Shown in pieces: positions 20,679-53,775 of a DNA stretch of 64,000 bases. Within the stretch, counting starts at the first letter, position 1; the number at the start of each line of letters is the position of its first letter. This stretch comes from Salinispira sp. (GTDB lineage Bacteria; Spirochaetota; Spirochaetia; DSM-27196; Salinispiraceae). A model generated the notes under the pieces. That model saw nothing but the letters and a program-made list of their open reading frames with translations. It was not told the DNA's origin and did no database searches. The position numbers were made by a program, and so were the translations under genes. The stretch lies in contig OZ271918.1 in assembly GCA_965602015.1 (NCBI GenBank), positions 2,336,001-2,400,000 on the forward strand, written 5' to 3'.

Positions 20679-20763
20679 TCAGGCCTCCGTGTTGCAGCAG
20701 TATTCTCATTGAAATATATCTCCCGATAGAGAAAATTCGACCGGTATCGTGACAAATACCCTG

Positions 20764-20810
20764 TGCCCCGAAAACAGCTGATGTACGGGAAATCAGCTGT
20801 TTTCGGGGCA
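20764..20810. repeat. Short copy of the dispersed inverted-repeat element (19-bp arms, 9-nt loop)
   Basis: TGCCCCGAAAACAGCTGAT-GTACGGGAA-ATCAGCTGTTTTCGGGGCA, perfect arms, 3 nt past the stop at 20814. Confidence 0.9.
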
Positions 20811-20813
20811 GTA

Positions 20814-21425
20814 TCAAAAAAACAGCCGGCTTCGGCGCGTATATTCGGGAAAATCCTCATAACGGCTCAAACTTTTGTCCTTGCGGATCATATTGGGGAG
20901 CCAATAGGCAAGAACCCACAGGGCCAGAATAGCTAATGGCAGCCAGTGCATGGCCAGCATGCCGAATCCGCCGTAGATGAGCAGTTCACCCAGATAATTC
21001 GGGTTTCGCCGGTACGCAAATAGTCCATCCCGGATCAAATGGCCGGGACGCAGCGTGAGATATGCGTGTTTTTGCATGTCGGCGGAGAAGTGCAGGAAGA
21101 TCCCCACAGCGTACAGGGCCACCGCAATGGCATGGTACCAGGCGGGTGCCTGGACATCGAAGTGGAAAATCATCCATCCGGCTATCCAGTAGAGGCTCAA
21201 TCCCCCGAGAATTCCGAAGAGGGCGAACCACCAACTCGTTTTTTCTTCCCAGCGCTTATCGGGGAAAACCCGGCTCTTCCACACCCACAGCACGCCGTAC
21301 GTGCCGTGCATGGCTATATACAGCCACGCTGTATGACTCTCCCAACGGCGGTAGACGAGCATAAGGATTATCATGACAAGGCCGGTAACGCCCTTGTGAC
21401 CGTCGATAAAATACTTCATTTTCAT
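20814..21425 (-). CDS. DUF1295 / steroid 5-alpha-reductase / ICMT-like membrane protein
   Basis: Multiple TMs; ADMQK, GLFAYRRNPNYLGE; SD AGAAGGAG before ATG 21425. Confidence 0.85.
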   Translation of the reverse strand: MKMKYFIDGHKGVTGLVMIILMLVYRRWESHTAWLYIAMHGTYGVLWVWKSRVFPDKRWEEKTSWWFALFGILGGLSLYWIAGWMIFHFDVQAPAWYHAIAVALYAVGIFLHFSADMQKHAYLTLRPGHLIRDGLFAYRRNPNYLGELLIYGGFGMLAMHWLPLAILALWVLAYWLPNMIRKDKSLSRYEDFPEYTRRSRLFF

Positions 21426-34969: not shown

Positions 34970-34994
34970 GTGCTCGGGTTTGCAGCTGTTTTTG

Positions 34995-35141
34995 CAGTGC
35001 CCCCAAAACAGCTGATTTAGTGCGCTAAGTTTTAATCCTGCATGGAAATACAAGTAGAGGTAAAAAAAACCTCAGATCAGTTCGTTACTTCTTGTTCCAA
35101 AGGCATTTGCATCAAATTAATCAGCTGTTTTGGGGGCACTG
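34995..35141. repeat. 147-bp element with perfect 23-bp terminal inverted repeats (MITE/REPIN/BIME-like)
   Basis: CAGTGCCCCCAAAACAGCTGATT (34995-35017) ... AATCAGCTGTTTTGGGGGCACTG (35119-35141), AT-rich 101-bp core, between convergent genes. Confidence 0.9.
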
Positions 35142-35150
35142 TGAACAGAT

Positions 35151-51836: not shown

Positions 51837-53621
51837 ATGAACGATCTGTTCAAATACCGCATATTACCGCTGCTACTCCTATCATATCTGCTTTCCGGTT
51901 TTGCCATTATCACTGCGTTTTCACCCTGGGTTCGGGCTCGGATTGCCTCGGATACCAGGGAAGTTCTCGAGTATCACGCCCGCAGCAGCGCGGAGATATT
52001 CTCAGCCCTGGACGCTCAAGGGCAGACCGAGCTGTTCTCCGATCCCGGGCTGGCAATCAACTCCCTGGCCCCGGATAGCAGCGCAGGTTCCCAAGACCGC
52101 ATGCCCGCCCTGACAAGATATTATCGGATCGACGATGTGCTCGTCCGTCAGAACCTGCTCTCCAGTCTTCCGGAGATTCAGCAGGCCCTCGAGATGAACA
52201 GCGGTTTTGCATTGCGGCGGGGGGCAGAATCGGGAGACCAGGTGTACGCTTTTGCCCTGAGTTTCGGTCCGCCGGATGAACGCATTCTGCTTCACAGCGT
52301 CCTCGCCCATCGTCGGGCGGCGGAAATTCAGAGTTTTCTCTCGATCCTGGTCAGCGGAATCCTCTCAGCGGGGCTCACCCTCAGCCTTGCGGGAATAATA
52401 GGGTTCATGCAGAGTTACCAGAGCTCATTAGACACAATTCATTCGGGAATCAATACGCTGAAGTCCGGCAATATCCCGCCGCGCCTTTCCTCCGGTCCTG
52501 CAGTTTTCCGGGAGATCGGCCGAGGAATTGAGGAGTTAGCATCTGAACAGCAGAAAAATATACGTTTTCTGGAGCAACAACGGGGGGAGCTGGCTCAGAT
52601 TCTCACCGCCATGAAAGACGGAATTATCCTCATCAATGAGCGGGAGGAAATACTGCTGATAAATGACGCCGCCTGTGAATTTTTTGCACCGAGGGAAACC
52701 CGGCCTGAAGATTGCGTCGGAAAGGCGGCGGCGGACTCCCTGCGTAACTCGGAACTTAACCGGATTCTTGAAGACCTTGTCCGCAGCAAATCATCGAACA
52801 CTCAACAGCTTTCAGTATATGACCGCCGTAGAGGGCGGTATCGCAGCCTGGAAATGCACGGATTATTTATTGCCTCAGATCAGCCCCAAGGGAGCAAAAT
52901 ACTCCTGGCCTTTCACGACATCAGCGAAATAGTCCGTCTGGAACAGGTGAGACGGGATTTTGTATCCAATGTTTCTCATGAGCTTAAAACACCCATAACG
53001 ACCATACAGGGATTTGCCGAAACTCTGGAGCAGGGAGCCGTGGATGATTCGTCAGTAGCCCGGAATTTTCTCTCTATAATCATCAAGCAAAGCCGGCGTA
53101 TGGAAAGCATCGTTTCGGATCTCCTGACCCTGTCCCGCCTGGAACAGCAGGGGGAGGAGCCGCAGACCGAAAAAACCAACATTGCCTCACTATTGGGCGA
53201 TGTGAAGGAAATATGCGCCGGCCGGGCAGCAGAACGAAATATTACAGTTCATAGCTCGGTCAGCGGTCTTGAGCATGCACAAATTAATGCAAACCTTATT
53301 GAACAGGCCGTTACAAATCTGGTCGACAATGCCATCAAGTACGGCAAACCCGGCGGAAGCGTATGGATAAATGCTGAAATTTCCCGGGAAGATCTGACAC
53401 TGATAGTCCGGGACGACGGTCCGGGAATCCCCGGCCGGGATCTGCCCAGGCTTTTCGAGCGCTTCTACCGGGTGGACAAGGGCCGTTCCAGCTCCATGGG
53501 AGGAACCGGACTCGGTTTGGCAATAGTCAAACACATCGTCAACGCTCACGGCGGCAGTGTCAGGGCGGACTCGGTTGTTGGCGAGGGGAGCAGCTTCAGC
53601 ATGATTATTCCGTTGGTGTAG
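51837..53621 (+). CDS. phoR: Phosphate regulon sensor kinase PhoR
   Basis: 2 TMs, HAMP/PAS-like region, RRDFVSNVSHELKTP.T.IQGFAETL, NLVDNAIKY, FERFYRVDK.R, GGTGLGLAIVKH. Confidence 0.9.
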   Translation: MNDLFKYRILPLLLLSYLLSGFAIITAFSPWVRARIASDTREVLEYHARSSAEIFSALDAQGQTELFSDPGLAINSLAPDSSAGSQDRMPALTRYYRIDDVLVRQNLLSSLPEIQQALEMNSGFALRRGAESGDQVYAFALSFGPPDERILLHSVLAHRRAAEIQSFLSILVSGILSAGLTLSLAGIIGFMQSYQSSLDTIHSGINTLKSGNIPPRLSSGPAVFREIGRGIEELASEQQKNIRFLEQQRGELAQILTAMKDGIILINEREEILLINDAACEFFAPRETRPEDCVGKAAADSLRNSELNRILEDLVRSKSSNTQQLSVYDRRRGRYRSLEMHGLFIASDQPQGSKILLAFHDISEIVRLEQVRRDFVSNVSHELKTPITTIQGFAETLEQGAVDDSSVARNFLSIIIKQSRRMESIVSDLLTLSRLEQQGEEPQTEKTNIASLLGDVKEICAGRAAERNITVHSSVSGLEHAQINANLIEQAVTNLVDNAIKYGKPGGSVWINAEISREDLTLIVRDDGPGIPGRDLPRLFERFYRVDKGRSSSMGGTGLGLAIVKHIVNAHGGSVRADSVVGEGSSFSMIIPLV

Positions 53622-53624
53622 TAC

Positions 53625-53769
53625 GTGCCCCCAAAACAGCTGATTTAAACCAGGTAATTGGTTTACGGCAAAGGATTTACCAGTCCGCGTTTGCATAACT
53701 TGACAACTTGTTGCTGTATTTTTCTCGCGAAAGGATTTAAGGCCAAAAAATCAGCTGTTTTGGGGGCAC
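53625..53769. repeat. 145-bp element with perfect 22-bp terminal inverted repeats (same family as 34995-35141)
   Basis: GTGCCCCCAAAACAGCTGATTT (53625-53646) ... AAATCAGCTGTTTTGGGGGCAC (53748-53769); fills almost the whole gap between the convergent phoR and DUF445 stops. Confidence 0.9.
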
Positions 53770-53775
53770 TGCATA

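Follow-up and report, generated by a model that had tools for sequence, protein, structure and literature searches.

MITEs of an IS1-like IS in a Salinispira genome carry two mirror-placed 25-bp sites, candidate targets of the nucleoid protein Hbb

Repeat elements in the window

The window, i.e., the whole 64-kb stretch of Salinispira DNA analysed here, contains a 19-bp arm, TGCCCC(C/G)AAAACAGCTGAT, in six places that constitute three inverted pairs, compared with none in 100 shuffles. Two of the pairs delimit MITEs and the third a short remnant. The genome of the window is termed G000 and the relatives compared with it G001, G002 and G014. The features are as follows (a dot denotes that no strand is assigned):

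20759..20815, strand. : 57-bp remnant with arms at 20764-20782 and 20792-20810, a 9-bp spacer and no internal sites
34993..35143, strand. : MITE, full extent of 151 bp including five terminal bases beyond each arm, without recognisable target duplication
34998..35016, strand + : conserved 19-bp left arm, equal to positions 6-24 of the terminal inverted repeat and identical to the arm of an IS1-like IS
35026..35050, strand. : 25-bp palindromic site 1, candidate Hbb/IHF-type site, one base closer to the arm in the subfamily of this MITE
35085..35109, strand. : 25-bp palindromic site 2, candidate Hbb/IHF-type site
35120..35138, strand - : conserved 19-bp arm, right end
53621..53773, strand. : second MITE, 153 bp, with no element at the orthologous site of relative G001
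53626..53644, strand + : conserved arm of the second MITE
53655..53679, strand. : 25-bp palindromic site of the second MITE, left end 35 bp away
53715..53739, strand. : 25-bp palindromic site of the second MITE, right end 35 bp away
53750..53768, strand - : conserved arm of the second MITE

As reported in the initial annotation, the two long copies possess identical arms, and 25-bp quasi-palindromes start at 35026, 35085, 53655 and 53715. The same annotation gave the elements spans of 143 and 145 bp (GTG..CAC), whereas the true ends are located 5 bp outside the TG of the arm (see below). The 35 kb copy is present as assembled in contigs from four runs of one sample; neither an empty allele nor a joint removing the MITE was detected in these runs, and the sole joint listed is one in which the MITE core is swapped for that of another copy. 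Immediately outside the left end of this MITE, at 34983-34992, the sequence CAGCTGTTTT gives a 10-base match to the reverse arm, which may be due to chance or represent a decayed arm. The first base of the 53 kb MITE is at the same time the last base of the stop codon (53619-53621) of an upstream gene for a sensor-kinase-like protein, the tail of which is three residues shorter than that of its G001 counterpart.

Genomic distribution, true ends and target duplications

With up to two mismatches allowed, the arm is matched 125 times in the genome, and the inventory comprises 30 MITEs, 12 elements of ~1.25 kb and four remnants of 42-47 bp; a further 35 arms are unpaired, nine of them still with a piece of core attached. 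From arm to arm the MITEs measure 133-145 bp (n = 30), with 29 of the 30 falling between 141 and 145 bp, so the fixed length originally proposed holds for the family; full lengths including the true ends are 151-155 bp. The arms are nearly invariant (59/60 without mismatch outside a single variable base). This base, position 7 of the arm, is C or G throughout the genome, with C in all 12 IS copies and G in the IS of G001, and it agrees between the two arms of a MITE in 24 of 30 cases, even where sister cores carry different variants, a pattern hinting at arm replacement.

Almost all MITEs (28/30) lie wholly between called ORFs, while the remaining two overlap an ORF by 9 bp. According to our own ORF calls, eight are situated between convergent, eight between divergent and 14 between co-directional genes; convergent arrangements account for 17% of gaps and 20% of intergenic length. 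The location between convergent stop codons that had been pointed out for the two long window copies is thus no general rule.

The position of the true ends was derived from sister copies, i.e., copies with cores at least 75% alike. The outer five bases beyond the TG agree between them (183 matches vs. 105 +/- 9 after permutation), and bases 6-10 show no sharing (76 matches vs. 78 permuted); the 21 pairs analysed stem from five subfamilies, 16 of them from only two, and are therefore not independent. Counting from these ends and defining a target duplication as a direct repeat of 8-10 bp with at most one mismatch, 12 of 64 elements (30 MITEs, 12 IS, four remnants, four elements of a second family and 14 elements from G001) are flanked by one, while 0.22 are expected from mismatched flanks; the best-fitting length is 9 bp. 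Six of the 30 MITEs of this genome bear such a repeat, 52 of the 64 elements do not, and at the 35 kb and 53 kb MITEs none is recognisable. The initial statement that target duplications are missing therefore stands for the two window copies and fails for the family. Duplications of 9 bp at the matching offset also flank 3 of 24 MITEs in G002 and 3 of 8 in G014. When counted from the TG of the arm, no candidate emerged except GTAC, which was rejected as being inherited together with one subfamily. For IS6-family elements, removal of duplications by adjacent deletion has been suggested (PMC6807381), and a comparable loss would fit the lone arms in this genome.

Neither G001 nor G002 contains an element at either window locus, although both are too diverged for base-level reading, and elements are absent from 39 of 40 relatives searched. 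In G001, 63 arm matches were found; 13 of the 20 stretches fetched contain a pair (all 143-145 bp) and seven an arm without partner. Within the genome, a flank search for empty alleles returned other repeats only, and a search for reciprocal flank exchange between copies yielded low-complexity matches only.

The partner IS

The 12 elements of ~1.25 kb are intact IS copies, each with an arm identical to that of the MITEs and an unbroken 377-aa frame. Their interiors differ by 3.5%, share polymorphisms in a mosaic fashion and exhibit a pN/pS of 0.09. In the initial annotation no transposase was visible, and a match of the arms to IS ends was taken to speak against its platform reading; the arms do coincide with IS ends, and a cognate transposase is encoded elsewhere in the genome, outside the window. 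In a BLAST analysis no match longer than 40 bp was obtained beyond the 12 IS copies, which supports the earlier notion that the MITE cores are not internally deleted derivatives of the present IS.

The 377-aa transposase matches the IS1 model NF033558 with an E value of 1.1e-8 and 35.2 bits, below the cut-off of 100, and no Pfam family was matched. The element operates as IS1 does without passing the family model, hence the term IS1-like. The predicted fold (pLDDT 91) is RNase H-like and nearest to those of DDE retroviral integrases, Mos1 and MuA, with a whole-chain TM of 0.29 or less. In an alignment of 66 sequences (the query and 65 of 120 homologues listed), C46, C49, D128, D219, N264 and D267 are invariant, and no invariant Glu is present. 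Within the order, 64 of 99 genomes contain relatives. Both the names given to transposase homologues and the Hbb-like protein of the genome identify the host as a spirochaete. Regarding the IS1 end motif, GGnnnTG (PMC6807381), the TG at positions 6-7 is kept, while GG is confined to a minority of the 125 arms, of which 43 have a G at position 1 and 64 one at position 2.

Several further observations were made on IS ends and arms. The outer three bases of IS copies (e.g., L001) differ pairwise by 30-71%, compared with 3.5% in the interior, and both IS ends show recurrent alleles, TGAAG and GAAAG among them; the end may thus be set by distance from the arm and not by sequence. A second IS, a distant member of this group (34-36% identical; G000:C1:2757300-2760735) that is split by an IS21-type element, has its own arm (17 matches) and its own MITEs of 108-110 bp. 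An IS110/IS1111-type element of 1.3 kb, present in 10 copies (e.g., G000:C1 236967-238273, 1213482-1214788 and 3401226-3402532), inserts at AG|TG of terminal repeats, its targets being seven full arms of the MITE family, one truncated arm, one arm of the second family and one site elsewhere. Three near-perfect 42-bp palindromes consist of the same end twice, joined at TTTAAA (G000:C1:201919, 400647 and 2681483).

Because the arms are IS ends, 9-bp duplications are present and elements are missing at orthologous sites, we consider it practically certain that the window elements are MITEs of an IS1-like IS residing in the same genome, and it is likely that they are mobilised in trans by its transposase. 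The relation between IS and MITE is in itself ordinary.

Core alignment and the 25-bp site

Although the cores had been described as not aligning simply, they can be aligned with hardly any gaps, the median identity being 45%, compared with 26% for shuffled cores. Statistics on the internal sites were computed for 58 ends of 29 representatives that are less than 75% alike (20 from G000, nine from G001). In a 25-bp window starting 30 bases from the TG, 4.4 of 10 positions are complementary, exceeding the best value in 500 core shuffles (3.29), so the four quasi-palindromes originally read in the window are beyond chance. The symmetrised profile, located 35 bp inside each end, reads YAA-N4-TT-N7-AA-N4-TTR. 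The motif is loose, with YAA occurring in 45, the inner TT in 31, the inner AA in 30 and TTR in 26 of the 58 sites. When a matrix from one of the two species was applied to the other, position 30 was chosen at 16 of 18 ends in one direction and 34 of 40 in the reverse. In 41 of 43 elements the distance from one site to the other is 59-62 bp. Neither conserved RNA structure (mean folding z of -0.41, with 6 of 58 below -2 against mononucleotide shuffles) nor a plain A/T periodicity of 10.5 bp (none of the periods is prominent) was found in the cores. Taken together, the data support the view that the core sites are under selection.

The left end of the IS carries the site at the position equivalent to that in the MITEs in both species (scores 7.9 and 8.9), while the matrix found none at the coding right end. 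Among five other MITE families the site is found in one, a G014 family with different arms whose transposase is ~35% identical to that of the IS described here: four of its five representatives have a site 35 bp from the end and two have a strong second site. The layout was not found in the other four, related families, in three of which the best score stayed below 8 in all representatives (18/18, 4/4 and 1/1), while one of three representatives of the remaining family gave an off-position match; the hosts of these site-less families do have Hbb. One MITE family of G002 (L090-L115) features its own positioned G/C-rich core motifs instead of the 25-bp site.

The motif in host DNA

Outside elements, intergenic DNA contains 44 matrix matches with a score of at least 10, compared with 17.8 +/- 5.8 (maximum 34) for 30 column-permuted matrices, and 16 with a score of at least 12, compared with 3.9 +/- 1.8 (maximum 8). 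Intergenic counts at scores 6 and 8 lie inside the permuted range, coding DNA shows no excess of matrix matches, and a genome count with the strict pattern gave no intergenic excess (four matches, 0-5 for other spacings, four for the reversed control). Most of the 44 intergenic matches are located upstream of genes, 15 of them between divergent and one between convergent genes. The top match outside elements (score 19.4; G000:C1:3611723-3611747) is intergenic and lies near a transposase-like frame.

G002, a genome without this MITE arm, was used for a comparison of 59 orthologous intergenic pairs. Of the 17 regions with a G000 match, six also have one in G002, compared with 3 of the other 42, and five of these six shared G002 sites are located at a matching distance from a flanking gene. 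As the 400 kb of G002 had been chosen around G000 matches, the G000 count is inflated, while scores played no part in the choice on the G002 side; taken alone, G002 exhibits no clear excess (9 vs. 4.5 +/- 2.6). Moderate-scoring sites are conserved on either side of dnaA: one between gyrB and dnaA scores 11.4 in G000, 9.6 in G002 and 8.2 in G001 and was not seen in G014, and one between dnaA and dnaN scores 7.8 (G000) and 8.3 (G002). Four motif matches fall within 8 kb around dnaA (G000:C1:3324208, 3327665, 3330562 and 3332212), three of which are kept in place in G002; they are candidates for origin-region Hbb sites.

Hbb as candidate binder

The presence of the site in the G014 family, the intergenic excess and the conservation at orthologous positions in G002 together argue for a binder that is a host protein, and on this basis the 25-bp sites are very probably host-protein sites, a prediction made from sequence. 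In all four genomes a single stand-alone IHF/HU gene (PF00216) is present, in addition to a weak domain in a frame of ~300 aa. The top matches of the stand-alone protein are two 204-aa single-chain IHF entries, followed by Hbb (E value 3e-23), its best single-domain PDB match. It retains the E-x-R-G-F-G motif of IHF-beta, of which we take the E-x-R residues to be those reading TTR.

IHF recognises the consensus WATCARnnnnTTR, and its kinks are separated by 9 bp (10.1101/382655). In our derivation, reflecting the ARnnnnTTR end of this consensus about kinks spaced in this way yields the spacing of the 25-bp site, and the TT and AA steps of the motif are likewise separated by 9 bp, i.e., by the IHF kink spacing. 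The full E. coli consensus was not found, as the WATC positions are unconserved in the site profile; a mirrored IHF half-site is what would be expected because Hbb is homodimeric. Borrelia Hbb is described as dimeric, and its targets include the dnaA-dnaN region as well as palindrome-like sites (PMC2811001), while one paper presents Hbb as non-specific with an A/T preference and as kinking DNA at AT steps (10.1101/2025.09.08.674847). On balance, we regard binding by Hbb together with a role in synapsis as somewhat more probable than not.

Length steps

MITE lengths were compiled for the families of the relatives and for the second family of the window's genome:

G002 family a: 127 bp (8 copies), 137 bp (5), 138 bp (10) and 139 bp (1), from 24 of 26 stretches, the other two being lone arms
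G014 family a: 76 bp, 77 bp (6 copies) and 87 bp, from 8 of 8 stretches
G014 family b: 91 bp, 147 bp, 148 bp (4 copies), 169 bp and 170 bp, from 8 of 17 stretches
G002 family b: 150 and 151 bp, from 2 of 6 stretches
Second family of the window's genome: 108, 109 and 110 bp

The main family of the window's genome adds one element of 133 bp to a mode of 141-145 bp. Off-mode differences are -10, -11, +10, +21, +22 and -57 bp, five of the six being within ~1 bp of whole helical turns; +21 and +22 may be a single event, and the remnants of 42 and 47 bp, which were omitted from this count, misfit, as does one 91-bp element. MITE lengths in related families thus step by ~10.5 bp, an observation that stems from few independent events and is suggestive only. 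One-turn stepping of lengths has been treated as a sign of end looping in experiments with IS1 and IS50 and for Paramecium IESs (PMC3464196). The spacing of the two sites, 60-61 bp, amounts to 5.7-5.8 turns, which does not demonstrate in-phase bending.

Proposed mechanism and alternatives

A duplex of 153 bp is about one persistence length long. We propose that homodimeric Hbb would occupy both 25-bp sites and bend each as IHF does, with two kinks 9 bp apart. With 47 bp between each end and the nearest site centre and 60-61 bp between the two centres, two sharp turns would result, and the folded DNA would place both 24-bp ends side by side for the transposase. Only copies retaining arms, helical phase and sites would keep moving; as copies that lose any of these would come to rest, lineages would preserve their geometry and drift at other bases. 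Site-less families might employ another aid or rely on phase alone. This explanation as a whole, a MITE whose ends are joined by means of two Hbb bends, appears to us the most plausible and somewhat better than an even bet. It retains one part of the initial interpretation, namely positioned, selected sites for a nucleoid protein acting together with a transposase, and abandons the other, a protein-assembly platform of the BIME-1/RIB kind in place of a MITE.

Among the alternatives, the one that fares best accepts the MITE and assigns the 25-bp sites to another host regulator or to the transposase, or has them damp transposition or transposase expression instead of serving synapsis. That the single IS site lies upstream of the transposase gene, at the left end, that intergenic host matches are mostly upstream of genes and that four MITE families move without this layout all fit such a function, as does the finding that Tn10 excision requires unfolding of the IHF loop (PMC3159471). 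The transposase as binder is nevertheless difficult to reconcile with a motif that is unlike the arm and is kept both in host DNA of G002, which has no such arm, and in a different-arm family with a transposase only ~35% identical. Regulation would leave unexplained why a gene-less MITE, which has no promoter to regulate, has kept two mirror-placed sites, and the motif spacing matches the IHF geometry. We therefore deem this alternative unlikely, if still deserving attention.

It is improbable that the elements are ordinary old MITEs that arose from two IS left ends, with the sites as leftovers and the length kept because deletions are rare. The same-position site at the IS left end, the homology of all cores and the 127-bp class of G002, the largest outside the mode, which looks like one subfamily, are compatible with such an origin. 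However, cores have diverged down to ~45% identity, yet motif positions and the 59-62 bp spacing have been retained in two species, each site shows a symmetric motif, and all but one of the off-mode differences fall near whole turns. Least of all do we favor a host-kept, no longer mobile BIME-1/RIB-like platform for a nucleoid protein and a topoisomerase at gene ends, which the nearly invariant arms, the host-type sites and the lack of duplications at most copies might recall, but against which speak the cognate intact IS in the genome, the duplications on sister copies, the absence from orthologous loci and from 39 of 40 relatives and the missing bias toward convergent ends (8/30 vs. 17% of gaps and 20% of intergenic length).

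If the two Hbb bends do join the ends, the family is of wider interest, as end joining in elements that fall below DNA's persistence length has so far mostly been assumed, and a testable design is offered here with two host bend sites, fixed distances and one-turn length steps. In addition, the family supplies 58 naturally diverged versions of a candidate Hbb site, along with predicted host sites near dnaA, for a spirochaete nucleoid protein whose specificity is known from few sites. With about even chances, the IS1-like MITEs of spirochaetes could constitute a natural helical-twist experiment, encoded in shape, with selection acting only on ends, phase and two Hbb bend sites, and with drifting cores that record the evolved Hbb binding profile, a mirrored IHF half-site that would also mark the origin region and other host promoters. 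In the literature consulted, which included few subscription papers, we came across no report of spirochaete MITEs that carry Hbb sites, of a helical stepping in the lengths of bacterial MITEs or of two mirror-placed symmetric sites in deeply diverged cores.

Comparison with known systems

The BIME-1/RIB elements of E. coli consist of inverted repeats that flank an IHF-type site at a fixed distance; their REP arms are tied to HUH enzymes and they are located at the 3' ends of operons. The elements described here resemble them in having inverted repeats around an IHF-type site (a candidate in our case) at fixed spacing and differ by DDE-type ends, duplications, two sites and the lack of an orientation bias. 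REP hairpin arms served by an HUH (RAYT) enzyme were not found, the arms instead flanking a transposase with a DDE fold.

Tn10/IS10 moves by cut-and-paste with an enzyme of the IS4 family. IHF binds beside the transposon end and folds this end within the transpososome (PMC3159471). There, heterodimeric IHF folds one end, whereas here each end of a very short element has a symmetric candidate site.

Likeness to the IS1 family, represented by IS1A from E. coli, extends to ends of the type NNNNN-TG...CTGAT with repeats of ~24 bp, to 9-bp duplications and to a transposase with an N-terminal Cys cluster, a helical region and an RNase H-like domain (IS1 anatomy according to PMC12428005). Differences are the single 377-aa frame in place of InsA/InsB, a score of 35 out of 100 bits, i.e., under the NCBIfam cut-off, the terminal GG, which is not kept, and the lack of an invariant Glu.

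In Paramecium, the lengths of IESs shorter than ~150 bp step by one helical turn, which has been read as looping in a transpososome-like complex (PMC3464196). Those elements are eukaryotic, are excised by a domesticated enzyme and number 45,000 cases, as opposed to a handful of steps in bacterial MITEs here.

The Correia elements (NEMIS) of Neisseria are described as 155-bp MITEs with terminal inverted repeats and an internal IHF site that is bound in vitro and for which help in transposition has been suggested (PMC2229807, PMC10969869). Size, terminal inverted repeats and an internal IHF-type site, here a candidate, are common to both. Given this IHF site and the folding of Tn10 by IHF, an involvement of host bending proteins in transposition is already known. 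Correia elements possess a single IHF site, which according to these sources resides in a dispensable 50-bp segment, whereas the family from the window combines two mirror-placed symmetric sites with cores of ~45% identity and an autonomous partner in the same genome.
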